From: Aestuariivirga sp.
Lineage (GTDB): Bacteria > Pseudomonadota > Alphaproteobacteria > Rhizobiales > Aestuariivirgaceae
DNA: 64,000 nucleotides
Assembly (NCBI RefSeq): GCF_041738905.1
Contig: NZ_JBGSOZ010000151.1
Coordinates: 5,829 to 69,828 of the forward strand
Direction: 5' to 3'
Shown here: positions 27,189 through 49,599 of the stretch, in pieces
Layout: every line of letters starts with the position of its first letter
Numbering within the stretch: the first letter of the stretch is position 1
Translations under genes and position numbers: made by a program
The notes under the pieces: model-generated
Seen by the model: the letters and a program-made list of their open reading frames with translations, nothing else
The model's database searches: none
Told to the model about the DNA's origin: nothing

Positions 27189-27507
27189 GCGCATTCGAGC
27201 AGATCATTCAGTGGCGCGGATTGCCACCGCGCGCGATCATCAAGTGGTGTACCTGATGGTGCATCCCAACCGTGAGAATTCCAAAGAAGCCGAGAGCCTT
27301 GGCTTTCTCCTGATCGGCCAGATCACAGCCGTGTCAAGCGCTGGATTCGTATTTGAGCACTCTCAAACCCTCGAACTCCCCAGCCTCCATCCAACTACTT
27401 CAACTCGTTCTACTGTGCATGTGTCGGCGAATACCGCACGAAGATGTGACACAGAGCGGACCATACCCACGATTGATGTACGATCTCAGATATGGCAAGA
27501 AAGGCTT

Positions 27508-27879
27508 ATGAGAACGACCTGGCTACGTTATTGTTGCTGTATTCTTGGCGTTCTTGCCATGCTGGGAAGTGTGTTGTCTGTACCACTCGTCTCAGCCGAT
27601 GCATTTGCGCCGAAGTCAGACATGAGCATGCCGTCCATGACGATGTCAGATGTAGGGGCAGAAGGCTGTCAGAAGCAGGCCGCTGCATGTGCTGACTGCG
27701 GAGATACGAAATGCCCAAATCTGACTAGCTGTCTCATTGTCTTTGTAAACTCGCTGCCGGCCCCTGCAGCCATCGCGTACCGCAGCGTAGTGGGCGCGAC
27801 GGAAAGTTTTGCCTTCTCGTCAGCGACTGCTCCGGCTGGCATGCTCATTCCTCCCTTAATCCGGCCTCCGATCGTCTAA
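27508..27879 (+). CDS. Secreted Cys/Met-rich leader protein (CutF/DUF2946-like)
   Basis: Signal peptide, CADC and CPNLTSC, C-terminal PPLIRPPIV; first gene before the cus operon. Confidence 0.65.
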   Translation: MRTTWLRYCCCILGVLAMLGSVLSVPLVSADAFAPKSDMSMPSMTMSDVGAEGCQKQAAACADCGDTKCPNLTSCLIVFVNSLPAPAAIAYRSVVGATESFAFSSATAPAGMLIPPLIRPPIV

Positions 27880-27977
27880 GCTTCACCGATGGTATTTTAG
27901 CGCCGCATTCAATGCTGCGCTGATGTGCGCGCGCCAGAGCGACGTGCGCAGGGCTCAGACTTATGGAGATTATCAAC

Positions 27978-28370
27978 ATGCTTCGTTACATCATGAAGGC
28001 GGCTGCTCTGGGCACCGTTCTTCTCACCAATTCTGTGACGGCCTCGGCCGATATCAAAGACTACGAGTTTCAACTCGTGACCAATGAGTTGAAACAAGGT
28101 GAGGCCGAAGTTGTCGTCAAGCTCGTCCGCAAACCATCTGGCGACGCAGTTCCCGATGCTGTGATCTTTGCTCAGAGAATCGATATGGGTCCAGATGGCA
28201 TGGAAACCATGCAAAGTTCTATAGAGGCCATAGCGTCTACAGAACCTGGCACTTACCGGTTCAAAACCAATCTGACTATGGTAGGCAACAGGGCTTTTTC
28301 GCTCGCTGCAAAGATCCAGGGCGAGACAGGCACTCTTGAGAACAAGCTCGTCCTCAAGGCCACGAAGTGA
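27978..28370 (+). CDS. FixH/YtkA-like periplasmic protein
   Basis: Signal peptide; DMGPDGMETM; LAAKIQGE; coupled to cusB. Confidence 0.7.
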   Translation: MLRYIMKAAALGTVLLTNSVTASADIKDYEFQLVTNELKQGEAEVVVKLVRKPSGDAVPDAVIFAQRIDMGPDGMETMQSSIEAIASTEPGTYRFKTNLTMVGNRAFSLAAKIQGETGTLENKLVLKATK

Positions 28371-29773
28371 GACGCGCCTTGAGAACAGTTGTTACCGTCG
28401 CGGTCATCTCGGCTGCAGCGGGAGCCGGGGTGTGGGCTGGCCAGATGGGCCTTGTGAAGATCCCATCGGAAATCTCTGGTGCTGTTTGGACTGTCGGACA
28501 TCCTCAGCCAGCCCGCGAAGTTATCTACTACCGTGATCCGACCGGAAAGCCGAACTACTCACTGACACCCAAGAGCACTGTTGATGGTCAACCATACGGA
28601 CCAGTCTATGCTAGCGAGGAAAAGGGTTTCGGGTCAGGAGACAACGAGGTCGTTGCTGCCCCAGAGCCTAAAATGGATCGGAAGATCAAGTTCTACCGCA
28701 ATCCGATGGGCTTGCCTGATACATCCCCCGTCCCCAAGAAAGACTCGATGGGAATGGACTACATCGTCGTCTATGAGGACGAGGACCAGAGCGACCCTTC
28801 CATTGTCAAGGTAAGCATCGAAAAGGTGCAGCGCGCTGGCGTCAGGACCGAGTCTGTCGCGCGACGGATATTATTGGAACCAATCCATGCACCGGGCTCG
28901 ATCCAGCTCGATGAGCGCCGCGAACGTTCCCTCACGCTGCGAGCCGAAGCATTTATCGAGAAAGTTTATGCCGGTGCAACAGGCCAGCATGTGAAGGCTG
29001 GTGAGCCGCTGTTTCGCTTCTACAGCCCGCAAATTGTCCAGGCGTTGGTCGACTACCGGCTTGCGGTGGCCGGCGGCCAAAAGCAGGCAGGCGCGCGCAA
29101 GCTCCTCAATCTCGGCATTCCGGAAGAGTTCATTGCTGCCATTCCGGCAAAAGGCGACATTCCATTCTCGATGGACTGGCCTTCACCCGTCGATGGCGTG
29201 CTGATGAGCAAGACGGTTGTTGCCGGGGCTCGCGCCATGCCGGGAGATGAACTCTATAGGCTGGCAGATGTCTCCACAGTATGGGTGATTGCCGATGTGT
29301 CCGAGGCAGACGTTGGCCGGGTCAAAATCGGCGACCCCGCGCAAGTCACCCTGCGGTCCTATCCGGGCGACATCTTCCGCGGAAAAGTCGCCTTCATTCT
29401 CCCTGAGCTGAAGGCCGAGACCCGCACAGCGCAAATCAGGATCGAGTTGCCCAATCCGGAGCACAAACTGCTGCATCGCATGTATGCAGATGTTGAGATC
29501 GATGCCGGACAATCCGCAAAGGTACTGGCAATACCGGCATCAGCGATCATCGACAGCGGCAGCCGGCAGGTGGCCATTGTCCAGGTAGGCGAAGGCCAGT
29601 TCAAGCCGACGGAAGTTCGCGTTGGGCGTCGAGGATCCGAGTATGTGGAAATTCTCGAAGGACTGAAGGAAGGGGAGCAGGTCGTCACGCGGGCCAATTT
29701 CCTGATCGACGCCGAAAGTAATCTGCAGGCTGCGCTGACCGGGCTTTCGGCTCCGGAAGGAGCCGCGCCGTGA
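28367..29773 (+). CDS. cusB: CusB-like RND periplasmic adaptor
   Basis: YRNPMG...DSMGMDY metal-binding domain; VVTRANFLIDAES. Confidence 0.9.
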   Translation: MRRALRTVVTVAVISAAAGAGVWAGQMGLVKIPSEISGAVWTVGHPQPAREVIYYRDPTGKPNYSLTPKSTVDGQPYGPVYASEEKGFGSGDNEVVAAPEPKMDRKIKFYRNPMGLPDTSPVPKKDSMGMDYIVVYEDEDQSDPSIVKVSIEKVQRAGVRTESVARRILLEPIHAPGSIQLDERRERSLTLRAEAFIEKVYAGATGQHVKAGEPLFRFYSPQIVQALVDYRLAVAGGQKQAGARKLLNLGIPEEFIAAIPAKGDIPFSMDWPSPVDGVLMSKTVVAGARAMPGDELYRLADVSTVWVIADVSEADVGRVKIGDPAQVTLRSYPGDIFRGKVAFILPELKAETRTAQIRIELPNPEHKLLHRMYADVEIDAGQSAKVLAIPASAIIDSGSRQVAIVQVGEGQFKPTEVRVGRRGSEYVEILEGLKEGEQVVTRANFLIDAESNLQAALTGLSAPEGAAP

Positions 29774-32700
29774 TTAGCAAAATCATTGAGTGGTCGGCCC
29801 GCAACATGGTGCTGGTGATCATTGGCACGCTGTTTTTGGCGCTTGCAGGCGCCTATGCAGTCAGGACCACGCCGCTCGATGCCATCCCTGACCTCTCGGA
29901 TACGCAGGTCATTGTCTATACCGAGTTTGCGGGCCAGGCACCGCAGGTTGTCGAGGACCAGGTTACCTATCCGCTCACCACATCGCTTTTGAGCGTACCG
30001 AAGTCCAAGGTGGTACGTGGCTTCTCGTTCTTCGGCGTGTCCTTTATCTACATCATCTTCGCGGACGGTACGGACCCTTACTGGGCGCGCTCGCGGGTGC
30101 TCGAATACCTGAACGCCGCAGCCAGACAATTACCGCAGGGTGTCACCCCATCGCTGGGCCCAGACGCCACGGGGGTCGGCTGGGTCTACCAATATGCCCT
30201 GACGGGCAAAGGCCGCGATCTGGGCGAGCTCCGCACTACGCAAGACTGGCAGCTGCGCTATGCTCTGGCCAAGGCCGAGGGTGTGGCCGAGGTGGCAAGC
30301 GTTGGCGGCTTCGTCAAGCAATACAGTGTGGTCGTCGATCCCCGCCAGATGCAGAGCTTTGGCATCTCATTGAACGATGTGCGCAATGCCATCCGTGCCA
30401 GCAATATGGATACCGGCGGCCGCACGGTCGAGATTTCCGAGACGGAATATGCCGTGCGCGGACGTGGCCTGTTCCGCAATGTAAAGGACATTGAGACGAT
30501 CGTCCTAAAGGCAGAGGGTGGCACGCCGGTCCTGCTGCGCGACGTGGCCCGCGTCGAGTTCGCGCCCGACGAGCGGCGCGGCATCACCGAGTTGAATGGC
30601 GAAGGTGAAGCCGTTGGCGGCATCGCCATCCAGCGTTATGGTGAGAATGCCCTGTCAGTGATCGACAACGTCAAGGCCCGGCTTGAAGACGTAAGGGCCA
30701 GTTTGCCAGAGGGCACCGAAGTGCAAACGGTTTATGACCGCTCCGATCTCATCCATCGTGCCATTGAGACGCTGAAGAGCACGCTGCTGGAGGAAAGCCT
30801 CATTGTTGCCGCCGTCTGCGTGATCTTCCTGCTGCACGTCAGGAGCGCACTGGTGGCGATCCTCATGCTGCCTGTTGGTATCCTGATTGCCTTCGCGCTG
30901 ATGCGCATGCTTGGGCTATCATCCAACATCATGAGCCTTGGTGGTATCGCAATAGCCATTGGCGCCATGGTGGATGCGGCAATCGTCATGATTGAGAATG
31001 CTCACAAACACTTGGAGCGGGCAAAGCCGGATACACCACGCATCGACATCATTGTCGCAGCAGCGAAGGAAGTCGGACCGGCGCTCTTCTTCGGGCTTTT
31101 GGTCATCACCGTGTCGTTCTTGCCGATTTTTGCTCTGGAAGCGCAGGAGGGTCGCTTATTCAAGCCCCTGGCCTACACCAAGTCTTTCGCCATGGCGGCA
31201 GCGGCGGTACTGTCGATCACGCTAGTACCCGCGCTGATGTATCTGTTCATCCGAGGGCGCATTGTTGCCGAGCACAGAAATCCACTCAATCGATTTTTGA
31301 TCTGGCTCTATCGCCCGGTGATCAAGGGCGTGCTGAAGGCAAAGATCTTTACGGTTGTGGTAGCCATTGGGGTTCTGGCTGGGAGCTATTGGCCTGCCAT
31401 GCAACTCGGCTCCGAGTTCATGCCCAACCTTGACGAGGGTACGTTGCTTTATATGCCAACGACCTTACCGGGACTTTCCGTTACCAAAGCGGCCGAACTG
31501 TTGCAAACCCAGAACAAGATCATCAAGACCTTCCCGGAAGTAGCATCGGTCTTCGGCAAAGCGGGACGAGCCAACAGCGCGACCGACCCCGCCCCAACCG
31601 AGATGATCGAGACAGTCGTCAATTTGAAGCCCAGATCAGAATGGCGTCCAGGCATGACCGCCGATTCGCTGATTGCCGAGATGGATAAGTCTCTGCAGTT
31701 TCCCGGCGTGTCGAATGCCTGGACGATGCCGATCAAGGCGAGAATCGACATGCTCTCCACCGGCATTCGAACGCCCGTTGGCATCAAGGTGTTTGGTCCC
31801 GACTTGAACGAGATCGAGAGACTTGGCCGCGAGATTGAGAAGGCCCTGCGCGCCCTACCGGAAACCTCGAGCGCCTTCTCCGAGCGGGTGATTGGCGGAT
31901 ACTATCTCGAGATCACGCCCGATCGCGAACGGCTGGCCCGCTACGGAATGATGGTCCAGGACGTGCAGGACACCATCGCCATGGCACTGGGTGCGGAGTC
32001 GATCACCACTGCCGTCGAGGGACGTGAACGCTATGCTGTCAACCTGCGGCTGCCGCGGGACCTGCGCTCTGATCCCCAGTCGATTGCGCGCAATGTGCGG
32101 GTCAGCGGGTCCAATGGCGTGTCGGTGCCGCTGGGTGAGGTCGCCGACATCAAGCTCACCACGGGGCCGTCGACCATCCGCACCGAGAACGCCCAGCTTG
32201 CCGCCTATATCTTTGTCGATACCCGCGACAGCGACATTGGCGGATATGTCGCCAAAGCTCAGCGCGCTGTCTCGGAGAACGTCAAGTTCCCGCAAGGCTA
32301 TTTCATTACATGGAGTGGCCAGTTCGAATACCTGCAGCGGGCCAAGGAGCGACTGCAGATCGTCGTGCCGGTTACATTGCTCATTATCTTCCTGCTGCTT
32401 TACCTGAACTTCCGCAAACTGACTGAGACACTCATCGTTATGTTGTCACTGCCTTTCTCGGTCGTCGGCGGCTTGTGGCTGATGTGGTGGATGGGATTCA
32501 ATATGTCGGTCGCCGTAGTAGTCGGCTTCATCGCCCTCGCCGGTGTTGCGGCTGAAACTGGGGTTGTCATGTTGATCTATTTGCAGAACGCTTTGGCAGA
32601 GTGGCGGCACCGTGCGGATGCCCAAGGCCGAATATTCACCAAAGCAGACTTGCATGGAGCAGTTATGGAAGGAGCGGTTGACCGCGTGCGCCCCAAGATC

Positions 32701-32934
32701 ATGACGGTCGCTGCTATCATGGCGGGGTTGCTGCCTATTCTGTGGAGCAGCGGAACTGGCTCCGAAGTCATGCAGCGCATCGCCGTACCGATGATCGGCG
32801 GCATGGTGTCATCGACTGTCCTGACCTTAGTCGTCATTCCCGCCATCTTCGCGCTTGTCGAGGGCGCAAGAATGCGAATGAGAAAGAAGCGCGAACTCGA
32901 TCCGTCACATCTTGGACCTGCAACCCAGACTTAG
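29770..32934 (+). CDS. cusA: CusA/SilA heavy-metal RND pump
   Basis: DAIPDLSDTQV, GAMVDAAIVMIEN, WTMPIKARIDMLSTG, RPKIMT. Confidence 0.93.
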   Translation: MISKIIEWSARNMVLVIIGTLFLALAGAYAVRTTPLDAIPDLSDTQVIVYTEFAGQAPQVVEDQVTYPLTTSLLSVPKSKVVRGFSFFGVSFIYIIFADGTDPYWARSRVLEYLNAAARQLPQGVTPSLGPDATGVGWVYQYALTGKGRDLGELRTTQDWQLRYALAKAEGVAEVASVGGFVKQYSVVVDPRQMQSFGISLNDVRNAIRASNMDTGGRTVEISETEYAVRGRGLFRNVKDIETIVLKAEGGTPVLLRDVARVEFAPDERRGITELNGEGEAVGGIAIQRYGENALSVIDNVKARLEDVRASLPEGTEVQTVYDRSDLIHRAIETLKSTLLEESLIVAAVCVIFLLHVRSALVAILMLPVGILIAFALMRMLGLSSNIMSLGGIAIAIGAMVDAAIVMIENAHKHLERAKPDTPRIDIIVAAAKEVGPALFFGLLVITVSFLPIFALEAQEGRLFKPLAYTKSFAMAAAAVLSITLVPALMYLFIRGRIVAEHRNPLNRFLIWLYRPVIKGVLKAKIFTVVVAIGVLAGSYWPAMQLGSEFMPNLDEGTLLYMPTTLPGLSVTKAAELLQTQNKIIKTFPEVASVFGKAGRANSATDPAPTEMIETVVNLKPRSEWRPGMTADSLIAEMDKSLQFPGVSNAWTMPIKARIDMLSTGIRTPVGIKVFGPDLNEIERLGREIEKALRALPETSSAFSERVIGGYYLEITPDRERLARYGMMVQDVQDTIAMALGAESITTAVEGRERYAVNLRLPRDLRSDPQSIARNVRVSGSNGVSVPLGEVADIKLTTGPSTIRTENAQLAAYIFVDTRDSDIGGYVAKAQRAVSENVKFPQGYFITWSGQFEYLQRAKERLQIVVPVTLLIIFLLLYLNFRKLTETLIVMLSLPFSVVGGLWLMWWMGFNMSVAVVVGFIALAGVAAETGVVMLIYLQNALAEWRHRADAQGRIFTKADLHGAVMEGAVDRVRPKIMTVAAIMAGLLPILWSSGTGSEVMQRIAVPMIGGMVSSTVLTLVVIPAIFALVEGARMRMRKKRELDPSHLGPATQT

Positions 32935-32944
32935 GAGGATAACT

Positions 32945-33421
32945 ATGAAAAACTTCGGCATGAACCGCCGTACTTCAATCTGCAGTCTCATTGCCATCGC
33001 GGCGGGCGGTCTGTTTCCAACAGTGGGACGCGCCGCGGGAGACGCCTTGCCTCCCGTCAGGGCGTATCGCAATCCCGGTTGTGGCTGCTGTGAGAAATGG
33101 GCTGGCCTGATGAAGGAGGCAGGATTCGCAATCACAATGGAGGACGACAACGATCTGGCTGGCCGAAAGGAGAAACTCGGCGTTCCGGCCGAACTTTCAG
33201 GATGCCATACGGCTCTGATCGCCGGGTATGTCATCGAAGGTCATGTGCCGCCGAAGGACATTCTGCGGCTACTGGCCGAGAAGCCAGACGCCCTTGGTCT
33301 TGCTGTGCCTGGAATGCCAGTGGGTTCACCAGGAATGGAAGCTGCGGAAGAAGCAGACGCTTACGACGTAATCCAGTTTGCTCGGAATGGATCGCAACGA
33401 GTCTTCGCCCGATACACGTAA
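32945..33421 (+). CDS. DUF411 (CopG-like) metal-binding protein
   Basis: GCGCC, CHTA, IEGHVP, VPGMPVGSPGME. Confidence 0.9.
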   Translation: MKNFGMNRRTSICSLIAIAAGGLFPTVGRAAGDALPPVRAYRNPGCGCCEKWAGLMKEAGFAITMEDDNDLAGRKEKLGVPAELSGCHTALIAGYVIEGHVPPKDILRLLAEKPDALGLAVPGMPVGSPGMEAAEEADAYDVIQFARNGSQRVFARYT

Positions 33422-33447
33422 TGCCACAGTTGTAAATCGGGAGGTGT

Positions 33448-33867
33448 TCAGTGCTCGCCGCCGCAACGCTTGTGGTCGCTGAGCACCTCGATGACTCGGC
33501 AATGGCTCACACGGCCATGGCCGCACTCTTCGACCATGCGTTTCAATTCTTTGCGAAGAGCCTGAAGTTTCTTCAGTCGTAACTCGACTTGTTCGAGATG
33601 CGAACGGGCGATGATGTCGGCGGCGGAGCAACTCGTGTCCGGATTGTCCGACAAATGCAGCAATTCCCGGATTTCTTCAATGCCGAAGCCGAGTTCGCGG
33701 GCGTGACGGATGAACTTGAGGCGACGCGCGTCCTCCGGACCATAGAGCCGGTGGCCACCCTCGGAGCGTGCAAAAGGCCGGATCAGACCGATCTCCTCGT
33801 AATAGCGGATGGTTTGAACCTTTGTGGCCGCGATCACGGCGAGTTTACCGATAGCCATGCCAGCCAT
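33448..33867 (-). CDS. MerR-family metal regulator (ZntR/CadR/PbrR type)
   Basis: TIRYYEEIGL HTH; three spaced Cys (DTSC, EEC, SHC). Confidence 0.9.
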   Translation of the reverse strand: MAGMAIGKLAVIAATKVQTIRYYEEIGLIRPFARSEGGHRLYGPEDARRLKFIRHARELGFGIEEIRELLHLSDNPDTSCSAADIIARSHLEQVELRLKKLQALRKELKRMVEECGHGRVSHCRVIEVLSDHKRCGGEH

Positions 33868-33878
33868 GGAATTTCCTC

Positions 33879-33909
33879 TTGAATCTCCAGTGGCTGGAGA
33901 TTGTATCAA
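33879..33909 (+). promoter_or_regulatory. MerR-type promoter/operator
   Basis: TTGAAT-N19-TATCAA with perfect dyad AATCTCCAG-tgg-CTGGAGATT (33882-33902). Confidence 0.85.
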
Positions 33910-33973
33910 AGAATCAGCGACGCTCAAAGGGCGGCGGCTAGACAACGCCGTCATATGACAGGAACGGAATACC

Positions 33974-34621
33974 ATGAATCGAAGGCAATCCATTATTGCG
34001 CTGGGAGCAGCAGGTCTGATGGGGGCCAGTTTCGCCAGCCAACGCTCCTTTGCGGAGGAGGAAGCCGCCGAGGTCGCCAAGCGTCTGCTGGACGCTGCGT
34101 CCCCACTTGGAGATCGCTCGCTCGGCAAAGCTGACGCTCCCGTTGTGATGATTGAGTATGCCTCGGCGACGTGCCCGCATTGCGCCGAGTTCCACGAAAT
34201 GGTTCTGCCGCAAATCAAGTCCGAGTACATCGAGACCGGAAAGGTCCGCTTCATCTTTCGGGAATTCCCGCTGGATCAACTGGCGCTTGGCGCCTTTATG
34301 CTTACCCGATGCATCTCCGAGGACAAGTATTTCGCGACACTCGATCTCATGTTCCAGAAGCAGAAAACATGGGCGCAGGCCAAGAACCCAGCCGACGAAC
34401 TGTTCAAGGTCATGCAGTTGCCAGGCATGGACCAAGCGGGGTTTGAAGCTTGCGTGAAGCGTGAGGAACTTGCCAAGGCCATCGTTGAATCGTCAAAGAA
34501 AGCTGCAAAGGACTTCGCCATCAAGGGAACGCCAGCGATCTTCATCAATGGCCAGTTCATAGATGCACACGAGGACATGGCGTCGGTCAAGATCGCCTTG
34601 GACAAGGCCATTGGCCAGTAG
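33974..34621 (+). CDS. DsbA-family thiol-disulfide oxidoreductase
   Basis: Twin-Arg-like signal, [13 protein letters not shown]. Confidence 0.9.
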
Positions 34622-34655
34622 AGCGCCAACGAAACCAACAATTCGGAATTTGAAG

Positions 34656-35306
34656 ATGAAGCGAAGAGAATTATTGACCGGCGCGCTGGCCGCAATTGCC
34701 ACGGCATCATTGGGCGTTTCGGAAGCAGTGGCGGAGAAGTTCCCGATTTTCCGCGCCGAGATTCAGAAGGTTCCGCCCAAATATCGCAAGCGGACCGTGC
34801 GATTTCTGAGTGACTACCCGGTGGGCACCATCGTTGTCGATACGCGCAACAAGTTCCTGTATCTCGTTCAACCAGGTGGCAGGGCAATCCGCTATGGCAT
34901 CGGCGTCGGGCGGCAAGGCTTCTCGTGGTCGGGCGCTGCTGTGATCAAGCGCAAGGCCAAGTGGCCGACATGGACACCGCCTGCTGCCATGGTGGCGCGC
35001 GATGAGTTCGCAGCCCAGTGGGCGAACGGCATGCCCGGCGGCCCGAAAAACCCGCTCGGCGCAAGAGCACTTTATCTGTATCAGGGCAATGTCGATACAC
35101 TATATCGCATCCATGGAACGTTTGTCCCGTCGTCCATAGGCAAGGCAGTTTCGTCAGGATGCATTCGCATGATCAATGCCGATGTCGCGGACCTTTATGA
35201 ACGCGTTCCGGTGGGAACGGAGGTCGTCGTCCTGCAAGGCCGATCGCCGTTCGTAGCTGAAGATATGCCGCCTGCGAAGCGCAAGCGGAAGTTCCTGTTT
35301 GAATAG
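34656..35306 (+). CDS. L,D-transpeptidase (YkuD family)
   Basis: MKRRELL signal; YRIHGT...SSGCIRM. Confidence 0.9.
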
Positions 35307-35315
35307 GATCGACAT

Positions 35316-37496
35316 ATGACAACGACGGCCCGCTTCCGCGTGCAGGGCATGGATTGCCCCTCCTGCGTCAGCAAGATCGAGACGGCCGTCAAGCGTATCG
35401 CGGGCGTCGAGACCGCCAAGGTCGGCCTGCAATCGGAGACCCTCACGGTCGAAATGGCCGATGCGGCCAGGAGCGAGGCTGTGGAGAAGGCTGTGACCTC
35501 ACTGGGCTACAAGGTCGCCCGGCAGGCCACCGCCGTTGCACCGCCGCAATCCGCGAACGCCGTTGCCCACTCAGGCCATGACCACTCCGGGAATGCTCAC
35601 GACGAGCCCAGTTCCGAAGCCGGGCATTCCGATCACGGCGAGGCCATCGATGGCCCGTGGTGGCGGTCCTCCAAGGGCGTGTTGGTCATCATCACTGGCG
35701 CCATGACTGCTCTGGCCTATCTCGATCACTACATCCTTCCCTATGGCTCGAAATATGCCTTCCTCGCCGCCGCACTAGTTGGCACTGCCCCGGTCGCCAG
35801 GCGCGCCTTCATGGCGCTGCGCAACGGGTCGCTGTTCACCATCGAGATGCTGATGACCATCGCCGTCATAGGCGCCATTGCCATCGGCGCCACGGAGGAG
35901 GCAGCGATCGTCGTGTTCCTGTTTGCAGTGGGCGAGTTGCTCGAAGGGGTCGCGGCGGGCCGGGCGCGCTCCGGCATTCGTGCACTGGCGAAAATCGCGC
36001 CGCAGACCGCCATGGTGGAAACGCCGTCCGGCCTCGTCGAAACGCCCGTGGCGCAACTCGCCCTCGGCAGCATCGTCGTGGTGCGGCCGGGCGACCGCGT
36101 GCCGGCAGACGGCGTCATCGTTTCGGGCAATTCCGCGCTGGACGAATCCGCTCTTACCGGCGAGTCCATGCCGCGGTCCCGCGGCGAGGGCGACATGGTG
36201 CTGGCCGGCTCCATCAATGCCGAATCCGTACTGCGCGTGCGGGTGGACAAGCCGGCGGGCGACACGCTGATCGCTCGCGTCGTCCGCCTCGTGGAGGAGG
36301 CGGCGGACGCCAAGGCACCCTCCGAACGCTTCATAGAACGCTTTGCCCGCTGGTACATGCCGATGATCTGTGTTCTGGCGCTGGCCGTGGCGCTCGTTCC
36401 GCCGCTCCTCTGGCATGCGCCTTGGGACGTGTGGATCTATCCCGCGCTGACGCTGCTGCTGATCGCCTGTCCGTGCGCGCTGGTGATCTCGACACCTGCC
36501 TCCATAGCGTCGGCGCTTGCGGCTGGCGCGCGGCGCGGACTCCTCGTCAAGGGTGGCGGCGTACTGGAGGCCATCGGCAAGGTGAAGCACATCGCCTTCG
36601 ACAAGACCGGCACGCTGACGGCGGGCAAGCCCGTGGTCACCGACGTTGTTGCGCTGGGCGGGACTCAGGACGGTGACGTGCTGCGTATTGCTGCCGCCGT
36701 CGAGTCCCATTCATCGCACCCGCTGGCGGTGGCCATCGTGGCGGCCGCGAAGGAGAAGAACATCGCCTTCACGGCGGTCGACTCCGAAGTCCTTCCCGGC
36801 AAGGGTCTGAAGGGTGAGGTCGATGGCCGGACCATCACCATCGGCGCGCGCGGCAGGCTCAACGTCACGCGCAAGGATGTGCTCGCGCGGGCGTCCGAAC
36901 TCGAAGCCGAGGGAAAGAGCGTCTCCGTGCTGCTTGCGGGCGATCAGCCCATCGGACTGATCGCACTCCGCGACGAGCTGCGCGAGGACGCCATCGCCGG
37001 TGTGCGCGCGGTGAAGGCGCTGGGTCTGATCCCGATCATGCTGACAGGCGACAACCGCGCCAATGCGGAAGCCGTGGGCAGGATCCTCGGCATGGAGGTC
37101 AGGGCGGAGCTTCTGCCGGAAGACAAGCTCGCCGTCATCCGCGAGAAGAGTGCGGCAGGCGGCATCGCCAAGGTTGGCGACGGCGTCAACGACGCACCGG
37201 CACTTGCCGCCGCCACGGTGGGGATCGCCATGGGATCGGGCACTGACGTTGCACTCGAGGCTGCAGATGCCGCCGTCCTGAACAATCGCATCTCCGATGT
37301 CGCGGGCCTCGTGCGGCTGTCGCGCCAGACCACGGCCGTCATTCGTCAGAACGTGGCGGTTTCACTTGGCTTCAAGGTGTTGTTCCTCGTCACCACGATC
37401 GTCGGCCTCACCGGCCTGTGGATCGCCATTCTCGCTGACACCGGTGCCACGGTGCTCGTCACTCTGAATGCGCTACGCCTGCTTCGTTGGCGCTGA
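35316..37496 (+). CDS. zntA: P1B-2 Zn/Cd/Pb-exporting ATPase
   Basis: GMDCPSC, His-rich linker, CPC, DKTGT, HP, GDGVND, ADTGAT. Confidence 0.9.
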   Translation: MTTTARFRVQGMDCPSCVSKIETAVKRIAGVETAKVGLQSETLTVEMADAARSEAVEKAVTSLGYKVARQATAVAPPQSANAVAHSGHDHSGNAHDEPSSEAGHSDHGEAIDGPWWRSSKGVLVIITGAMTALAYLDHYILPYGSKYAFLAAALVGTAPVARRAFMALRNGSLFTIEMLMTIAVIGAIAIGATEEAAIVVFLFAVGELLEGVAAGRARSGIRALAKIAPQTAMVETPSGLVETPVAQLALGSIVVVRPGDRVPADGVIVSGNSALDESALTGESMPRSRGEGDMVLAGSINAESVLRVRVDKPAGDTLIARVVRLVEEAADAKAPSERFIERFARWYMPMICVLALAVALVPPLLWHAPWDVWIYPALTLLLIACPCALVISTPASIASALAAGARRGLLVKGGGVLEAIGKVKHIAFDKTGTLTAGKPVVTDVVALGGTQDGDVLRIAAAVESHSSHPLAVAIVAAAKEKNIAFTAVDSEVLPGKGLKGEVDGRTITIGARGRLNVTRKDVLARASELEAEGKSVSVLLAGDQPIGLIALRDELREDAIAGVRAVKALGLIPIMLTGDNRANAEAVGRILGMEVRAELLPEDKLAVIREKSAAGGIAKVGDGVNDAPALAAATVGIAMGSGTDVALEAADAAVLNNRISDVAGLVRLSRQTTAVIRQNVAVSLGFKVLFLVTTIVGLTGLWIAILADTGATVLVTLNALRLLRWR

Positions 37497-38611: not shown

Positions 38612-39073
38612 ATGATCCTCTCGCGCAGAACAACTCTTCTGTTACCGCTCCTTCTGTTTATGAACCGTACCGCGGAAGCCGGGGCACGGCGCCTCGAGGT
38701 AATGTCCACCAATGGATGCGGTTGCTGCGTTGCCTGGGTCAAGCATCTGGAAGCGGAGGGCTACACGGCGACCGTGACCAACCTGCCGATGGCAGACCTG
38801 GTCCTTAAGAAGATGGCGGCCGGATTGAGGCCTGAACTCTATTCCTGCCATACGGCCATGATCGACGGTTATGTCATCGAGGGTCATGTGCCAGTCCGTG
38901 ACATCAACCAACTCCTGCGCGACCGTCCCGATGCAATTGGTCTCACCGTGCCGGGCATGCCAACGGGATCTCCCGGCATGGGTGAGCCAGACCCCTCTAA
39001 CCCCTATGAGGTGCTGCTGGTGCGTCGCGACGGAACGACGGATGTGTTCTCTCGTCAACCTCAGGCAGGCTAG
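38612..39073 (+). CDS. Second DUF411 protein
   Basis: GCGCC, SCHTA, IEGHVP, VPGMPTGSPGM. Confidence 0.9.
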   Translation: MILSRRTTLLLPLLLFMNRTAEAGARRLEVMSTNGCGCCVAWVKHLEAEGYTATVTNLPMADLVLKKMAAGLRPELYSCHTAMIDGYVIEGHVPVRDINQLLRDRPDAIGLTVPGMPTGSPGMGEPDPSNPYEVLLVRRDGTTDVFSRQPQAG

Positions 39074-39633
39074 CGTTTCGAGCTGCTGTTGTCTGCTTGA
39101 ACTACTCGCTGGCGGTGCCGTCGGGGGCAGGCTGCAGCGGCGATGATGATGATCGGGAACGGCACGGTGAAGCAGTAGAGCGCTGTAAACGCGAGTGCGG
39201 CAATCCACCAGTCAACTCGCTTCTTGAGAGCGCGTTTTGCGACGCACAGCAGTGCTTCAATGACGATCGCGAGGATGGCTGCCTTGATGCCGTGGAAGAT
39301 GGCGTCTACGACCGGAGGCCTCCCAAAGGCGGCACAGAGCATAGACAAGACAAGTACGACGAGCGCGCCTGGCAGGACGAACAGCAGGCCCGCCGCCAGA
39401 CCGCCTTCCACGCCGTGCAATCGCCAGCCGGAGTAGGTGACGAGCTGCATTGCCTCCGGACCGGGGAGCAGCATGCAGAAGTTGAGAGCAGACAGCTATT
39501 CATTCTCCGTGAGCCATTGACGTTCATCGACGAACTCGCGGTGCATGAGCGCGATTTGCCCCGCCGGTCCACCGAACGACAGGCAGCCAATCCGTGCCCA
39601 GACCTTCACGGAATCACGGAAAGATGCTGTCAC
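39070..39633 (-). pseudogene. chrA: Chromate transporter ChrA fragment
   Basis: SFGGPAGQIALMH, LLPGPEA; in-frame TAG at 39498-96; C-terminal half missing. Confidence 0.85.
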
Positions 39634-39860
39634 GACTTCACCTTGCTGGTGGGCCAGTTATGGGTCTCGTCCGTGGCGTCACGGCACCAGCGGTAGAAGG
39701 CATCGTAGATCAGCATTCCGGCCTCGAGCTGGGGCAGGTCCTCGCTGAACATGCGCGACAAGCCCATTGAGGCGGCAAGAAGCCCTGGTGCCTCAGGAGA
39801 TAGGTCGAGCCGGGCCGTGTCCGCCGCCCGCACGATAGTTGCCAGTTTCAGCAGGGGATA
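39630..39860 (-). pseudogene. chrB: ChrB C-terminal fragment
   Basis: LATIVRAADT, GLLAASMGLS, YDAFYRWC; no N-terminus. Confidence 0.8.
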
Positions 39861-40016
39861 CCTGCGCCGGTTCGGGCGGTTGGCGTTGTTCAGTAATGGG
39901 CGCTGCCAGGGTCGGCCAACAGCTTCGTAGCCGGGCGCATTGATTCCGCTTGGATTGGAAGGTAGCGGTGGGTGTGCTATCGCTCGGCCGACAGCATGCG
40001 CCGCGATGTAACAGCA

Positions 40017-40751
40017 ATGTCTTTGGATCCAGCCGAACTATTTCAGGCCCGACCGACCATTCTTTTGGTCGATGACGACGTTCAGATTCTGGAACTCGTG
40101 GCCAGATTTCTGCGGTCCAGCGATTTTACCGTCCGCACTGCGCGGGACGGTCGGGAAATGAATGCTTCCCTGGCCGACAGCCCGGTCGATCTGATCGTGC
40201 TCGATCTGATGCTCCCCGGTACCAGTGGATTGGTTCTCTGCCGCGAACTGCGGAAGACGTCGCCTGTCCCGGTGATCATGCTCACCGCCAAGGGGGACGA
40301 CGTTGACCGGATTACCGGCCTCGAGGTTGGCGCCGACGACTATCTCGCCAAGCCTTTCAATCCGCGCGAACTCCTCGCGCGGGTGAAGGCGGTTCTCCGG
40401 CGGACGGCGGCAAGTCTCACCCAATCCCGGACGCGCCACAGGGGCTTCGGCTTCGCCGGGTGGAAGCTCGACTTCCTGAAACGCGAGCTGACCCGGTCGG
40501 ACGGTGTCGTTGTCGATCTGTCGGTGGGAGAGTTCGATCTTCTCGTGACCTTCCTTGATGCGCCCCAGAGGGTGCTCAGCCGCGAATATCTTCTGGACAC
40601 CGCGCGCAACCGGACGCTCGAACCCTTCGACCGGGCAATCGACGTTCAGGTGAGCCGGTTGCGCCGGAAAATCGAAGACGGCGGGGAATTGATCAAGACA
40701 GTGCGGGGTGCCGGCTATATCTTTGCGCCCAATGTCGAGCGGTTCGGCTAG
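40017..40751 (+). CDS. OmpR-family response regulator
   Basis: LVDDD, LDLMLPG, GADDYLAKPF, DRAIDVQVSRLR. Confidence 0.92.
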   Translation: MSLDPAELFQARPTILLVDDDVQILELVARFLRSSDFTVRTARDGREMNASLADSPVDLIVLDLMLPGTSGLVLCRELRKTSPVPVIMLTAKGDDVDRITGLEVGADDYLAKPFNPRELLARVKAVLRRTAASLTQSRTRHRGFGFAGWKLDFLKRELTRSDGVVVDLSVGEFDLLVTFLDAPQRVLSREYLLDTARNRTLEPFDRAIDVQVSRLRRKIEDGGELIKTVRGAGYIFAPNVERFG

Positions 40752-40761
40752 AGGGGTCCAC

Positions 40762-42120
40762 ATGCTGAAACGGGGATTGGACCTGACATTGAACTGGCTG
40801 GACAGTCTGGCCGTTCGGACCATGCTGGTGGTGCTGCTCGGCATCGGGTCCATGCACGTCGCCAGTCTCTGGACCTATCAGCGCGCCCTGATCGCGGAGG
40901 CAGAGTTCGCCAACGAGGCCCGGCTTGCAGACCGGCTGCTTGCCATCAAGCGCTCCGTCCTCCGCGCAGCTCCCGGCGCCCGCGAGGCGGTCGCCCACGA
41001 CATGTCGGGAGGCGCCATCGAGGCGCACTGGAGCAGGGACGCGCTGGCGGTGGAGGGTGGCTCTGGCGCCAGCAGTTGGCAAAGCCTGGGTGAGCAGTTG
41101 CTGGCCCTCGCTCCGGAACTCGGCGAGAACGGGCTGGTGATTGGCGCCAGCGGCCAAGCTGTAAATGATCCGCACCTCGCTGTGATATCGATGCGCCTGC
41201 CGGATCAGACCTGGGTCAACGTGAGTCTCCTGTCTTGGGCGCCGCAACCGTCGAGCGTACATGGAACACTCCTCTCCACCAGTCTCATGGCGGCAGGGGC
41301 ACTGGTGATTGCGCTCTTGCTGGTCAGAGCGCAGACGAGACCGCTCTCGACCTTCGTCAAGGCGGCGGAACGCATTGCCCATGTGCCTGCTGTTGAACCT
41401 GTCTCCGAAACGGGCCCGAGAGAGGTTCGTGCTCTCGCCACGGCCTTCAACGACATGCAGCGGCGCATCAAACGGCTGATTGACGACAGAACGCATGCGC
41501 TTGCGGCAGTTTCGCATGATCTCAAGACCCCGATCACGCGGCTGCGGTTTCGCACCGAGGAAATGGACGACACGGCGCTCCGTGCGGCCGTTGCCGCAGA
41601 TCTCGACGAGATGGAGCGCATGATCGACCAGACGCTTTCATACTTGAGGGAAGAGCGTGGGGAAGAGGAGGTAAAGCCCGTCGACCTGGTTGCGATCCTC
41701 GAGACGGTCACCGACGATGTCGCCGATTCCGGCAGGGAAGCAAGGCTCGAGGGCAGTCCCGCTGCGGTGGTGTGGGGCCGGCGCCTCGCGCTCAAGCGGG
41801 CCTTTGCCAATCTCATCGGCAATGCCGTCAAGTACGGTCTCAGGGCTCAGACCCGGGTGGAAGACGCGGCCGACCATGTGCGAGTCACGATTACGGACGA
41901 GGGTCCGGGGATCGCTACCGAGGACCGGCTACGGGCGCTCCAGCCGTTCGTCCGGCTCGAGCCATCCCGCAACAGCGAAACGGGCGGATTCGGGCTGGGC
42001 CTCACAATCGCAGATTTGGTCATCCGCGGGCACGGCGGCCAGCTTGAACTGACAAACGGCAGCGAAGGAGGTCTGGTCGTGACGGTTCTCCTACCCAAGC
42101 GCCAGCCGGCTGCCGTCTGA
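40762..42120 (+). CDS. Sensor histidine kinase
   Basis: HAMP, VSHDLKTP, NAVKYG, DEGPG, GFGLGL. Confidence 0.92.
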   Translation: MLKRGLDLTLNWLDSLAVRTMLVVLLGIGSMHVASLWTYQRALIAEAEFANEARLADRLLAIKRSVLRAAPGAREAVAHDMSGGAIEAHWSRDALAVEGGSGASSWQSLGEQLLALAPELGENGLVIGASGQAVNDPHLAVISMRLPDQTWVNVSLLSWAPQPSSVHGTLLSTSLMAAGALVIALLLVRAQTRPLSTFVKAAERIAHVPAVEPVSETGPREVRALATAFNDMQRRIKRLIDDRTHALAAVSHDLKTPITRLRFRTEEMDDTALRAAVAADLDEMERMIDQTLSYLREERGEEEVKPVDLVAILETVTDDVADSGREARLEGSPAAVVWGRRLALKRAFANLIGNAVKYGLRAQTRVEDAADHVRVTITDEGPGIATEDRLRALQPFVRLEPSRNSETGGFGLGLTIADLVIRGHGGQLELTNGSEGGLVVTVLLPKRQPAAV

Positions 42121-42134
42121 TACACTCTGTTACA
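42118..42134. promoter_or_regulatory. Possible OmpR-family tandem binding site
   Basis: TGATACA-ctc-TGTTACA, 10-bp period, upstream of the RND adaptor gene. Confidence 0.4.
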
Positions 42135-42200
42135 GAGCTGAAATAATTCCAGGCACTGTCTCCGCTATAGGGGTCCCGGAAATCTTCCCGGAAGGACCAG

Positions 42201-43868
42201 ATGCACGGATTACTGAAGCTTGCTGTGGCCGTTCTCGGTTTTCAGATCGCCGGCATATTGGCGGCGGCTGCCCACGAGGGGCACGACCACGGCGCGCCAC
42301 CGCCCCCTGTCTCGACCACGGTCGCCCCCCGCATGGAAGCGTCCTCCGGCGACTTCGAACTCGTCGCGATTGCCGGGTCCAGTGACGTCGTCATTTACCT
42401 GGACGGTTTCCGCACCAACGAGCCGGTGAACGCAGCCGAGATCGATGTGGATACCTCGGGGGAGACCCTCAAGGCCACGGCTACGGGAGACGGGATTTAT
42501 GTGGTGAAGCCGAAGTGGGCCGGCTCTCCTGGTGGCCACGATCTTGCCTTCACCATACAGGCCAACGGCCTGATCGACGTGCTGACCGGAACGCTCTCCA
42601 TTCCCCCGCCGCCGGCACCTCCCCCGGAACCGGAGCAGATTCTCAGTGGCTTTGTGCCGCCCGGCGTCGTTGCGGCCGCGCGCGAGCGCATTGCCAAAGC
42701 CGATCTGGCGCTGTGGACGATCGCCGGCGGATCATTCCTCCTGGGGCTTATCGTTGCCCTGTTCTTCCGCCGAAGGGGCCCCGCCGTGGCAGCCATTGCT
42801 GCAGGCGTCCTGCTGATGAGTGACCCGGCCGAGGCCGCGTCCTCGCCTCAGCCAGGCCAGGCCTCTATCGCGGTGCGCGATATGGCGCAGCGCCTGGCCG
42901 ACGGCACGATCTTCGTTCCCAAGCCGACCCAGCGGGTTCTCGCGATCCGTACGCTCTTTACCGAGGAACAGGACCATCCGGGAACTGTGGAGCTCCCCGC
43001 CCGCGTGATTCCCGACCCGAATGCGTCCGGCTTCGTTCAGTCCTCCCAGGGCGGCCGGCTGACACCGCCAAAGGGCGGCTTCCCGCGGCTCGGCGCCAAG
43101 GTCGAGGTCGGCCAGGTGCTGGCCGAAGTGATGCCCGTCATCGGTGCGGCCGATCTCAACAGCCAGGAGGCACAACTCCGCGAGGTCGAGCAGGAGATTT
43201 CGCTGATTGAGTCGAAGCTCAAGCGTTACCGCAAGCTCAAGGAAGTGGTGTCCGTCTCTGCCGTGGAGGATGCCGAACTCGAACTTGAAGGGCTGCGGGC
43301 GCGGAAAATGGTCCTCGCATCCGCCACCGCCGAGCCCGAGAAGCTCGTGGCCCCGGTTTCCGGCGTCATCGCCTCGGTGAATGCGGTCGCGGGTCAGATC
43401 GCGGAGCCGAGTGCGGTGATCTTCCAGATCATCGATCCCACCCGTTACTGGGTGGAAGCGCTGAGCTATCAGGCGCTCCCGATCGCAGGCGAGGGAGAAG
43501 GCCGGCTTGCGGACGGGCAGGTCCTGAAGGTGAGCTACCGGGGGACGGGGCTTGCCGATCGCAACCAGGCTGTTCCGATACAGTTCGAAGTCGAGGGCGA
43601 TGCGGAGATGCTGAGGGCGGGCCAGCTGCTGACTGTCCTCGCGCATACCCAGTCCGATCGGAAGGGCATTGCCGTTCCGCGCACCGCAGTGATCCGGGGC
43701 GCAAATGGCCAGCCCATCGTCTACGATCACATCAGCGCCGAGAACTTCCGCCCCCGCGAAGTCCGAATCGAGCCGCTCGACGGCGATCGCGTTCTGATTG
43801 TGTCGGGCGTTGGTCCGGGCAGCCGCATCGTGTCGCAGGGTGCCGAACTCCTGAACCAGATTCGCTGA
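42201..43868 (+). CDS. CzcB-like RND adaptor with long His-rich N-terminal extension
   Basis: HEGHDHG, extra periplasmic domain, TM, then adaptor domain ([15 protein letters not shown]). Confidence 0.85.
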
Positions 43869-43879
43869 GCCGCAGCCTG

Positions 43880-46800: not shown

Positions 46801-47035
46801 GCCGCTGATGATCGACGCGCAGGCACCGGGCAAGGAGATCCTCCACCCCGTGGCGATTACCATTTTCGGCGGCTTGGTGACCGCGACGGTACTGGACAGC
46901 TTCCTGACGCCAACCCTCTTCCTCCGCTACGGCCGTAAGCCGCTCGAGCGCCTTGTCGCGCAGGCGCGGGAGAGGGCACGCCAGCAGGCCGCTGGCCATT
47001 CGTCGCAAAGTCCGCAACCTGCTGAAGCTTTCTGA
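43880..47035 (+). CDS. CzcA/NrsA-like heavy-metal RND pump
   Basis: [29 protein letters not shown]. Confidence 0.92.
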
Positions 47036-47048
47036 ATTGGAGATCCGC

Positions 47049-47417
47049 ATGAAGAAGATCGTCGCCGTCCTTGGTTTCTGTTTCCTCATGATCATGCCTG
47101 CACTTGCGCATGCGCCCCGGCCTGGCCCCAATGGCGGCCTCATGGTCGATGCCGGGGATTACCATACCGAGCTCTTCGCGGATGGGAGTGAGACCGTGAC
47201 GCTTTTCCTGTTCGACGTGAATGACCAGCCTGTGGAAAGTGCCGGTTTCAAAGCGAACGCCATTCTGATCGTTGGCGGAAAGCCCGCTCGTTTTGCGCTG
47301 GAGCCCGCCGGTGGGCAGAAGATGGTGGGCAAGGCGCCCGGGCTGGTCGAACCCGGCGTCAAGGGAGCGGTGCAGATCACCTTGCCGGACGGCGCCACGA
47401 TACAGGCGAAGTTCTGA
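47049..47417 (+). CDS. Small periplasmic protein of the RND operon
   Basis: Signal peptide, H-x-GPNGG, YHTEL. Confidence 0.7.
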   Translation: MKKIVAVLGFCFLMIMPALAHAPRPGPNGGLMVDAGDYHTELFADGSETVTLFLFDVNDQPVESAGFKANAILIVGGKPARFALEPAGGQKMVGKAPGLVEPGVKGAVQITLPDGATIQAKF

Positions 47418-47544
47418 CGGAGCGCTATTGATCGTGCTGTCCAAAGTACTGGCGGGTTCGGTATTTCACTCGGGTTCCTGGCCGGAGACCGGAGAGGGAT
47501 GAGACGGGCGGGTGCGGCTCGGACTGGCAGCGCAACAATAGGTC

Positions 47545-47568
47545 TTGACCTTCCCAGCGTGGTAAGGT
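47545..47568 (+). promoter_or_regulatory. CueR-type operator/promoter
   Basis: TTGACC overlapping ACCTTCC-N7-GTAAGGT (one mismatch to the CueR consensus). Confidence 0.75.
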
Positions 47569-47631
47569 GCAGAAGCCTTGTCTTGCGGTAGGTCAAAGTT
47601 CCGCCGCACGAAATGCATAAAACTAGGTCCA

Positions 47632-47985: not shown

Positions 47986-48064
47986 CGCAGTCCTAACTCT
48001 CTCCTTCATCCTTGATCTGATCAGTCGTGCGCCTCTTGCAGCGCGCCCAATGAAAGCATTCGAC

Positions 48065-49522: not shown

Positions 49523-49530
49523 CGCAAGAA

Positions 49531-49557: not shown

Positions 49558-49599
49558 ACTGGCCTTTTCCTTCAGACAGCTATTGGTTCTGGAACATCA

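Follow-up and report, generated by a model that had tools for sequence, protein, structure and literature searches.

In the 64,000-nt stretch of Aestuariivirga sp. DNA analysed here (contig NZ_JBGSOZ010000151.1, positions 5,829 to 69,828; hereafter the window), a small exported leader peptide may control a copper/silver efflux operon at the level of translation. A leader open reading frame (ORF), a 98-nt structured gap, a ytkA/fixH-like gene, cusB and cusA follow one another on the plus strand, on which all features described below lie unless stated otherwise. We propose that the leader peptide acts in cis and gates the translation of ytkA-cusB-cusA, a reading that we regard as evenly poised. 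The leader ORF (27508-27879; ATG at 27508, TAA at 27877-27879) encodes 123 residues, is exported and Cys/Met-rich, with 8 Cys and 7 Met including a Met-rich stretch, and ends in PPLIRPPIV. An earlier interpretation made without database searches (the sequence-only reading) had described this ORF and the 98-nt gap, and both were recovered when the sequence was re-read.

In the proposed mechanism, the Shine-Dalgarno (SD) sequence of ytkA would be held, in the free mRNA, in a two-part long-range helix (P0 and P1) that closes a three-hairpin junction. A ribosome standing over the RPP codons or the stop codon of the leader would melt the 5′ strands of P0 and P1, and with both strands melted the SD would be freed. 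Initiation at ytkA could then pass to cusB and cusA by virtue of the 4-nt overlaps between these genes. The C-terminal motif PPx(1-2)RPPxx-stop may slow or arrest the ribosome at the helix-opening position. With the ribosome there, the Cys cluster, which lies 38-67 residues back, would be passing out of SecYEG into the periplasm, where Cu(I) or Ag(I) bound to it might lengthen the pause and so yield more pump at high periplasmic metal, as in the CutF model. A pause that metal prolongs makes sense as the direction of control for an efflux pump. Judging from the gene order, ytkA is the first gene whose translation the leader element would gate, and in the relatives it was always the next gene after the leader.

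Neither the window leader nor 27 family members could be assigned to a meaningful family by Pfam and NCBIfam scans. When 5.8 billion proteins were searched through a word index, a single homologue was returned, P0002, with 59% identity, encoded on a metagenome contig in the order leader, YtkA and membrane fusion protein (MFP), as in the window. A phmmer search of 1.84 billion cluster representatives yielded 26 relatives, and a profile search yielded 129 clusters, every one named 'hypothetical'. These Hyphomicrobium-type proteins had 27-59% identity to the window ORF and kept its frame, length, signal peptide, Cys columns and C-terminus. A weak cusA match to plasmid pD of Ensifer adhaerens led to a rhizobial branch. 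On that plasmid, a 'hypothetical protein' ending in PPDRPPRT is followed by a 121-nt gap, a FixH-family gene, an MFP and a resistance-nodulation-division (RND) pump. The rhizobial branch comprised 48 further clusters (Rhizobium, Ensifer, Agrobacterium, Mesorhizobium, Paramesorhizobium and Kaistia), bringing the family to about 177 protein clusters (129 + 48), and hhalign linked it to the Hyphomicrobium-type branch with 97.2% probability (E 4e-11).

The order leader, gap, YtkA, CusB and CusA was found in 10/10 protein-retrieved Hyphomicrobium-type loci, with gaps of 98-124 nt. The same order recurred in 3 rhizobial protein-retrieved loci (L049-L051) and at least six plasmid loci, with gaps of 98-130 nt. 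A DNA pattern scan of contigs, with one genome per GTDB species, produced 34 loci, and all of those whose titles were resolved below class came from Hyphomicrobium or Hyphomicrobiaceae. A tblastn search of plasmids added Ancylobacter, Bosea, Xanthobacter autotrophicus Py2, Methylovirgula, Phyllobacterium and Sinorhizobium RAC02; in annotated records these matches lay just upstream of a FixH or MFP gene. Together, the Hyphomicrobium, rhizobial and plasmid relatives indicated that the family spans the Hyphomicrobiales and is frequently plasmid-borne. Its members have a leader of 105-140 aa, a gap of 100-130 nt and one of two Pro-motif variants. Throughout, they share three conserved features: an RNA helix between the stop-codon region and the SD region, an RPP that stands two residues ahead of the stop, and a Cys cluster kept at a set distance from the RPP.

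On the comparative evidence, the leader ORF is a real, translated gene. Against P0002 its dN/dS was 0.21, and the last 13 codons were the most constrained part (dN 0.08). The start column was shared by ATG, GTG and TTG across the relatives. One could suppose instead that the ORF is spurious and that the region is merely a structured 5′ untranslated region or a small RNA, given the missing Pfam and NCBIfam matches and the leaders that are unannotated in several plasmid records. We give this view next to no credence, and the comparative data effectively refuted it, through the conserved features listed above, the profile link to the 48 rhizobial clusters, the low dN/dS and the synonymous variation at conserved residues.

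The first 30 residues (27508-27597) form a Sec-type signal peptide, assigned by reading the sequence (MRTTWLRYCCCILGVLAMLGSVLSVPLVSA, then DAF, with predicted cleavage after VSA). An AlphaFold2 model gave residues 3-31 as a confident helix, with a predicted local distance difference test (pLDDT) score >90, and an LGxxAMLG core was conserved in the signal peptides of the family. The mature part had no confident fold in this model (pLDDT <50; mean pLDDT 56), although the alignment behind it was shallow, at 18 sequences. If the prediction holds, a mature part without a confident fold is as expected for a sensor peptide. Within it lies the Cys cluster C54-x6-C61-x2-C64-x4-C69-x5-C75 (27667-27732), a putative Cu(I)/Ag(I)-binding motif on the periplasmic side, located 44-65 residues before Arg119. 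Four to five of the Cys columns were invariant in the family alignments. C61-A-D-C64 forms a CxxC in the window leader, and CP[DNE]C was conserved across the Hyphomicrobium-type branch; the rhizobial branch differed in having the pattern CC...C-x3-C-x5-C-x3-C.

The C-terminal motif PPLIRPPIV (residues 115-123, 27850-27876), in which RPP occupies residues 119-121, is the candidate arrest sequence. P116, L117, R119, P120 and P121 were invariant or nearly so. RPP-xx-stop was found in 173 of 180 proteins, 126 of 132 Hyphomicrobium-type and 47 of 48 rhizobial-type. The former end in PP-LL/LI-RPP-(S/I)V-stop and the latter in PP-x-RPP-R(T/S/A/I)-stop. In the rhizobial proteins, the RPP codons varied synonymously (AGA/CGA; CCU/CCC/CCG; CCG/CCA/CCC), so that the peptide itself is under selection. 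The spacing to the Cys cluster was also regular. In most proteins of both branches the last Cys lay 38-40 residues before the Arg; the window leader belongs to a small subgroup that lacks this last Cys, and its final Cys is 44 residues before Arg119. The distance from CxxC to the Arg was 54 residues in 29/31 Hyphomicrobium-type sequences, including the window. The linker between the Cys cluster and RPP was fixed in length and poorly conserved in sequence.

These features bear on the alternative that the leader works in trans as a periplasmic protein, either a metal chaperone or a CzcI-like pump regulator, and that the helix merely balances synthesis. Purifying selection over the whole ORF and the five or six conserved Cys would suit such a protein, and CzcI, encoded upstream of czcCBA, has been discussed as a regulator that senses metal and has no Pro motif. 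We nevertheless consider it quite unlikely. The mature part lacks a confident predicted fold, and the region from the Cys cluster to the C-terminus is poorly conserved yet fixed in length, while the last nine residues are the most conserved. Moreover, the motif keeps a constant distance of 2 residues to a stop codon that itself lies within the helix.

The gap (27880-27977) measures 98 nt and ends at the ytkA ATG (27978). For the window, the minimum free energy (MFE) fold and the centroid agreed with each other and with the consensus structure that RNAalifold gave for 37 sequences. The 5′ strand of P0 is an anti-SD, CUCC(G) (27866-27870), inside the Pro120 CCU and Pro121 CCG codons. Its CUCC (27866-27869) pairs with the ytkA SD GGAG (27965-27968), the 3′ strand of P0 in the window MFE, and 4 pairs were present in 37/37 sequences (RNAalifold). 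P1 is the stop-codon helix. Its 5′ strand GUCUAAGC (27874-27881) covers the Val123 codon, the TAA stop and 2 more nt, and its 3′ strand GCUCAGAC (27953-27960) is the conserved partner of GUCUAAGC; the window has one compensatory G-C pair in P1 where the family has A-U (column 46/147). Three hairpins are enclosed by P1 in the window MFE (27885-27893, 27897-27923 and 27924-27950). The sequence-only reading had placed two hairpins in the gap, and the second and third of these hairpins lie within 2 nt of where it put them. It had also paired CTCC...TAAG at the end of the leader with CTTA and GGAG over the SD. The CUCC/GGAG half of this pairing was present in the MFE, the centroid and the consensus; TAAG and CTTA are complementary yet unused, the conserved partner being GCUCAGAC.

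In the 37-sequence alignment, the structure was 93.6% paired, compared with 33-48% in slid controls, and the hairpins were 80-95% paired. Eight pairs had changed on both sides, 7 of them in the hairpins, and 0 of 500 shuffles reached the observed covariation. Because the DNA pattern itself fixes parts of P0 and P1, the 28 loci obtained with it lend those columns no independent support. We therefore judged P0 and P1 on the 10 protein-retrieved, the rhizobial and the plasmid loci. In the 10 protein-retrieved loci, third-position entropy was 1.3-1.9 bits over codons -14 to -6. It fell to 0 at Pro120, where CCT occurred in 10/10 loci compared with 16% of Pro codons in the operon. At Pro121 it was back at 1.57, the wobble base there being the first nucleotide of the internal loop, and it was 0 for the last two leader codons and the stop. 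At the level of sequence, then, the RNA constraint coincides with the paired bases.

At the Arg codon of RPP (27862-27864, codon 119), CGA was present in 33 of 38 Hyphomicrobium-type loci and CGG in the window. CGA made up 9% of the Arg codons in the window operon, and its base was unpaired in the consensus structure. With CGA at codon 119, more bases match the 16S 3′ tail (ACCUCC), and decoding might be slower as well.

Beyond the 10/10 protein-retrieved relatives, this helix architecture was found in about 10 further lineages. A stop/SD helix built from other sequences occurred in Ensifer (CCUGAAUUCAUCG / CGAUGAAUUCAGG), Mesorhizobium (CCUAAGUUCAUC / GAUGAACUUGGG), Bosea (GCUGAGAC / GUCUCAGG), Xanthobacter (CCUAGG / CCUGGG) and Sinorhizobium RAC02 (UGAUUUCACAU / AUGUGAAAC), and likewise in Rhizobium, Kaistia, Methylovirgula and Phyllobacterium. 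When the native duplexes were tested against shuffles, those of 6/13 loci were matched by at most 0.8% of the shuffles.

We modelled SD accessibility with a partition function and a ribosome footprint of -12 to +15 around the P site. For the window, the probability that the SD is unpaired rose from 0.05 in the free RNA to 0.47 with a ribosome on Pro120 or on the last sense codon. In 7/8 Hyphomicrobium-type loci, placing the ribosome on RPP or on the stop codon raised accessibility from at most 0.05 in the free RNA to 0.17-0.59. In silico, then, the SD gate opens once a ribosome has reached the end of the leader.

Several results weigh against the proposed gating by metal-dependent arrest, in addition to the shallow alignment behind the structure prediction. 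P0 has only 4-5 bp and is separated from P1 by a 4x4 internal loop. The stop/SD duplex of the window was not remarkable, with 31% of shuffles matching it, nor was its whole fold (z = -1.45); the case therefore rests on the comparative evidence. For L002 and L050, the accessibility model predicted no opening of the SD. The RPP of the leader is not a canonical RAPP, RGPP or PPP arrest core, and the metal specificity of the leader is deduced solely from its Cys cluster and the CusA type of the pump. Finally, the helix would be opened by any ribosome that terminates, so the RNA data do not call for stalling.

This last point leads to plain translational coupling, with neither arrest nor metal input and with the metal response transcriptional or absent. 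A terminating ribosome fits the helix and the accessibility model just as well, RPP is not proven to be a strong arrest core, and the neighbouring metal-resistance island does contain metal regulators, namely a MerR-type protein (33448-33870) and a response regulator/histidine kinase pair (39972-42120). We hold this explanation to be unlikely, though a contender of some substance. It does not account for the need for an exported Cys-rich peptide, for a constant distance between Cys and RPP across a free linker, or for the conservation of the amino acids of RPP-xx-stop while their codons change synonymously. In addition, there was no conserved operator upstream of the leader.

Control of copper and silver efflux pumps is usually said to be transcriptional and to run through CusRS or through regulators of the CueR/MerR type. 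Upstream of the leader, neither a scan nor an alignment of 32 upstream regions made a MerR-type or two-component operator evident. The sequence-only reading had seen no CueR box, and the search for a MerR-type operator upstream of the leader agreed with it. A scan with promoter consensus sequences found none on the plus strand upstream of the leader. A promoter-like stretch (27473-27501) is nevertheless recognisable, with TTGATG (27473-27478), a 17-nt spacer ending in TGG, and CAAGAA (27496-27501). It is a weaker version of a motif seen in the 32-region alignment for the Hyphomicrobium relatives (L002-L047), TTGC-N17 (ending in TGn)-CAnnnT, followed after 6 nt by the ATG, GTG or TTG start. In the window, AAAGG precedes the ATG; most GTG starts of the relatives have no preceding SD. 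The stretch homologous to L001 starts about 70 nt before the leader ATG. From its sequence, the motif may be a -35 and an extended -10 element with transcription starting at or next to the start codon, in which case the leader mRNA would be leaderless. Readings of TTGC...TGGCA as a sigma-54, extracytoplasmic function (ECF) or MerR-type element were rejected on misfitting spacings, and an extended -10 sigma-70 promoter fitted best.

Control could also be exerted within the gap, if arrest and release governed Rho-dependent termination there rather than access to the SD. CruR, a DUF2946 protein, acts in this way and carries a C-terminal R-x-PP-type motif and a CXXC. For the window operon we consider such attenuation very improbable. 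The gap of 98-130 nt is almost fully base-paired and not C-rich (C/G 0.8-1.1 in 12 loci), making it a poor Rho loading site, and the conserved long-range helix ends on the SD. No intrinsic terminator came up when the gap was scanned for one, and the region 27300-28100 matched no Rfam family at E<=1, which means that the gap does not belong to any known class of riboswitch or leader RNA. The missing terminator, the missing Rfam match and the base composition together render a CruR-like Rho mechanism less likely. The polarity of CruR, in which Cu switches expression off, would also be maladaptive for an efflux pump.

Gating at the SD of ytkA, which we prefer, would act on the following genes. 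The ytkA/fixH-like gene (27978-28370; 130 aa, exported, Met-rich) matched Pfam PF13115 (E 1e-17). Its stop is overlapped by the GTGA of cusB (4 nt), which encodes a CusB-type MFP (28367-29773; Pfam HlyD_D23, E 7e-62; NCBIfam CusB subfamily). This is followed, again with a 4-nt overlap, by the CusA-type heavy-metal efflux (HME)-RND pump (29770-32934), in which the signature AIGAMVDAAIVMIEN is present. The sequence-only reading had put the leader in front of cusBA; cusB and cusA do belong to the operon, and the gene at 27978 proved to be ytkA (PF13115) rather than cusB. The pump scored 1204 bits against E. coli CusA structures and 571 bits against ZneA. The Met residues of LLYMP, EM(I/V)ET and IDMLS align with those of CusA, and we take them to correspond to CusA M573, M623 and M672. 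The pump carries the AIGxxxDAAxxxIEN signature, which is known from Nies's HME4 class. The cluster has no cusC and no cusF, and YtkA takes the CusF-like position. The CusA-type score and the signature thus point to an RND system of the Cu(I)/Ag(I) type, lacking cusC and cusF, as the target.

A DUF411 (CopG-like) gene (32912-33421; Pfam PF04214, E 4e-26) closes the cluster in several relatives and occupies the same place in L005 and L008. When 27400-33500 was compared with plasmids by megablast, the matches reached only about 72% identity and were confined to cusA and the 3′ end of cusB. The public sequencing runs that contained the window were DNA-type metagenomes only, and 100% of its words were found in hot-spring samples. 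RNA-labelled runs of unrelated organisms (X21-X24) contained near-identical Hyphomicrobium GJ21-type copies (L042:1900-3300), which are probably contaminating Hyphomicrobium. One contig from these runs, X23 (2315-2758), spans the 3′ end of the leader, the gap and ytkA. It is compatible with co-transcription of the leader and ytkA; its depth is low, and DNA carry-over is possible.

Several Hyphomicrobium genomes carry two diverged leader-ytkA-cusBA copies (L027/L041, L024/L030, L021/L031 and L015/L035), and the L041 copy of strain 2TAF46 has the TAA stop and the ...TAAGC helix variant of the window. The leader ORF was absent from the PLSDB gene tables, which are incomplete, for L053 (Ancylobacter pC), L054 (Bosea), L058 (Methylovirgula) and L055 (Xanthobacter Py2 pXAUT01). 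In Xanthobacter, a minus-strand 'hypothetical protein', Xaut_4830, is annotated across it. In five loci from metagenome-assembled genomes with 'contig_N' names (L010, L013, L016, L018 and L034), the leader or ytkA frame was broken and the C-terminal motif and the gap were intact. These contigs were taken to be long-read assemblies, and the breaks are most likely assembly indels rather than signs of pseudogenes. A divergent relative on plasmid pMaqPC1 of Methylobacterium aquaticum (L056, 1345-1731) ends in PPSEPPGA-stop, EPP replacing RPP. The next annotated gene, about 225 nt downstream, encodes an ABC-transporter ATPase, and the PLSDB table lists no YtkA/FixH gene there. It may be a decayed or re-targeted copy.

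Downstream of the operon, 33448-37496 and 38612-52473 of the window make up a metal-resistance island. The MerR-family gene (33448-33870, minus strand) adjoins a ZntA/CadA-like ATPase. The regulator has a Cys at a position like C79 of ZntR and a C-x7-C loop, and the adjacent P1B-ATPase, which is His-rich and contains GMDCxxC, looks like a Zn/Cd/Pb-type pump. The island also encodes a DsbA-like thioredoxin, a YkuD transpeptidase, two DUF411 proteins, a DUF302 protein and a multicopper oxidase. The response regulator/histidine kinase pair mentioned above precedes a second MFP-RND pair (42201-47035), and a YHS/HMBD CopA-like ATPase lies on the minus strand (49600-52047).

A second exported Cys/His/Met-rich ORF (47633-47985) is found in the island. 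It encodes 117 aa, starting MFSRLL and ending LAPPFEPPRA-stop, and stands about 80 nt (47986-48065) upstream of a multicopper oxidase gene with a twin-arginine translocation (Tat) signal (from about 48066), the classical cutF-cutO arrangement. The ORF matched no Pfam family, hhalign (9%) detected no homology between it and the leader family, and the gap that follows it had no notable RNA structure (z -0.2). Ensifer pD has an equivalent pair, in which an ORF at 8213-8605 of L048, ...RAPPDPYPPRTIDIG, is followed by a multicopper oxidase.

If the proposed gating is true, a whole alphaproteobacterial order would control a Cus-type pump post-transcriptionally, through a nascent exported peptide that reads periplasmic metal. 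The same would hold for the resistance islands that rhizobia, Xanthobacter, Bosea and Hyphomicrobium carry on plasmids. The family amounts to a natural mutational series, in which helix sequences differ, the architecture is the same and two Pro-motif variants occur. It is suited to testing the generality of the CutF model and the transmission of a metal signal from outside the membrane to the peptidyl-transferase centre. A leader that has no family name and is missing from several plasmid gene tables merits a profile model, an annotation gap rather than a surprise.

Among known systems, the leader resembles CruR of Bordetella pertussis in its export signal, its CXXC, its position as first gene of a copper-related operon, its ruler-like spacing and an Arg-Pro-Pro-containing motif 2-3 residues before the stop. 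In CruR, Rho-dependent termination takes place in a 162-nt gap, and Cu relieves the arrest and switches off an uptake receptor (Roy et al. 2022, PMC9426467). The target of CruR is thus an uptake receptor, whereas the leader has a compact SD-masking structure before an efflux pump. The motifs also differ. DUF2946 proteins such as CruR have RAPP three residues before the stop; the leader family has (L/I/D/P/A)RPP followed by exactly two residues, with the R directly abutting PP. The distance from CXXC to the arrest motif is 45 +/- 2 in DUF2946 and 54 in the leader family. PF11162 (DUF2946) matched neither the window ORF at E<=0.1 nor the 27 family members at E<=1, and it was absent from the precomputed Pfam domains of 168 leader-family clusters. 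A fixed ruler between metal motif and Pro motif was described for DUF2946 by Roy et al. (PMC9426467) and discussed for CutF by Ozturk et al. (PMC9973294).

SecM-secA, VemP-secDF2 and MifM-yidC2 share with the leader an exported or membrane-targeted chain whose arrest close to the C-terminus unfolds a downstream SD-masking stem, and the masking stem of secM-secA likewise uses the 3′ end of the leader ORF. SecM, VemP and MifM sense translocation activity, not metal. Their cores and those of ApdA and ApdP are RAGP, RAPP, RGPP or long idiosyncratic sequences, and the leader lacks their R-x-PP register. Its own core is R-P-P-[S/I/R], and an R-x-P-P fit would need a Pro after PP, which is never present. 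The leader accordingly does not match the R-x-PP arrest core as characterised by Fujiwara et al.

CopL of Xanthomonas and Stenotrophomonas, CzcI and the CusD/SilD nodes are further small Cys/His/Met-rich ORFs directly upstream of copper or HME-RND genes, and were grouped as CutF-like by Ozturk et al. 2023 (Fig. 6, PMC9973294). CzcI has no C-terminal Pro motif. None of the three is described with a YtkA/FixH-like next gene or with a stop-codon/SD helix. The commonest neighbours of CutF-like genes in the same study, which was bioinformatic only on this point, were OEP, ACR_tran (CusA/CzcA/SilA), HlyD_D23 (CusB/CzcB) and CusF (PMC9973294). The view in the sequence-only reading that an RND target had not been described must accordingly be given up. 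We found no experimental work on an RND-linked CutF-like member in the literature, and no mention of YtkA or Hyphomicrobium in Ozturk et al. 2023 or its supplementary text.

The closest counterpart is CutF of Rhodobacter capsulatus, encoded in cutFOG (Ozturk et al. 2021; Ozturk et al. 2023, PMC9973294; preprint 10.1101/2025.02.05.636593). The leader has the features by which CutF-like proteins were recognised (Ozturk et al. 2023): it is shorter than 150 aa, carries both a signal peptide and a Cys motif, has PP among its last 15 residues (115-116 and 120-121) and is followed by a 98-nt structured gap to ytkA. It shares with CutF a small Sec-exported peptide, a Cys metal motif and a C-terminal Pro motif before the stop. 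In both, RNA structure in the gap hides the SD of the following gene, close enough for a ribosome at the arrest site to reach it, as suggested for the leader by the in silico and comparative data, and a metal-prolonged pause is proposed to raise synthesis of a Cu-detoxifying system. The CutF motif is PEPEGPPPRL and that of the leader is PPLIRPPIV (xRPPxx-stop). CutF has a single CxxxC and a simple intergenic stem-loop; the leader has a cluster of 5-6 Cys including CxxC, and an anti-SD within its own Pro and stop codons that closes a three-hairpin junction. The target of CutF is a Tat-exported multicopper oxidase, and that of the leader is ytkA-cusBA. The likeness to CutF and CruR put forward in the sequence-only reading therefore stands for CutF and falls for DUF2946, given the missing PF11162 match, RPP in place of RAPP and a spacing of 54 instead of 45. 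We can only tentatively suggest, with more doubt than confidence, that the leaders form a distinct, Pfam-less Hyphomicrobiales lineage of arrest peptides that sense periplasmic Cu/Ag, possibly convergent with DUF2946, whose arrest and stop codons form the anti-SD and which provide the main or only metal control of a Cus-type pump in place of CusRS or MerR-type regulators. Overall, the interpretation given in the sequence-only reading is partly supported. The leader belongs to an unnamed, well-conserved CutF-like family distinct from DUF2946, whose signature in RNA and peptide is unusually clear, and the concept is not new in kind.

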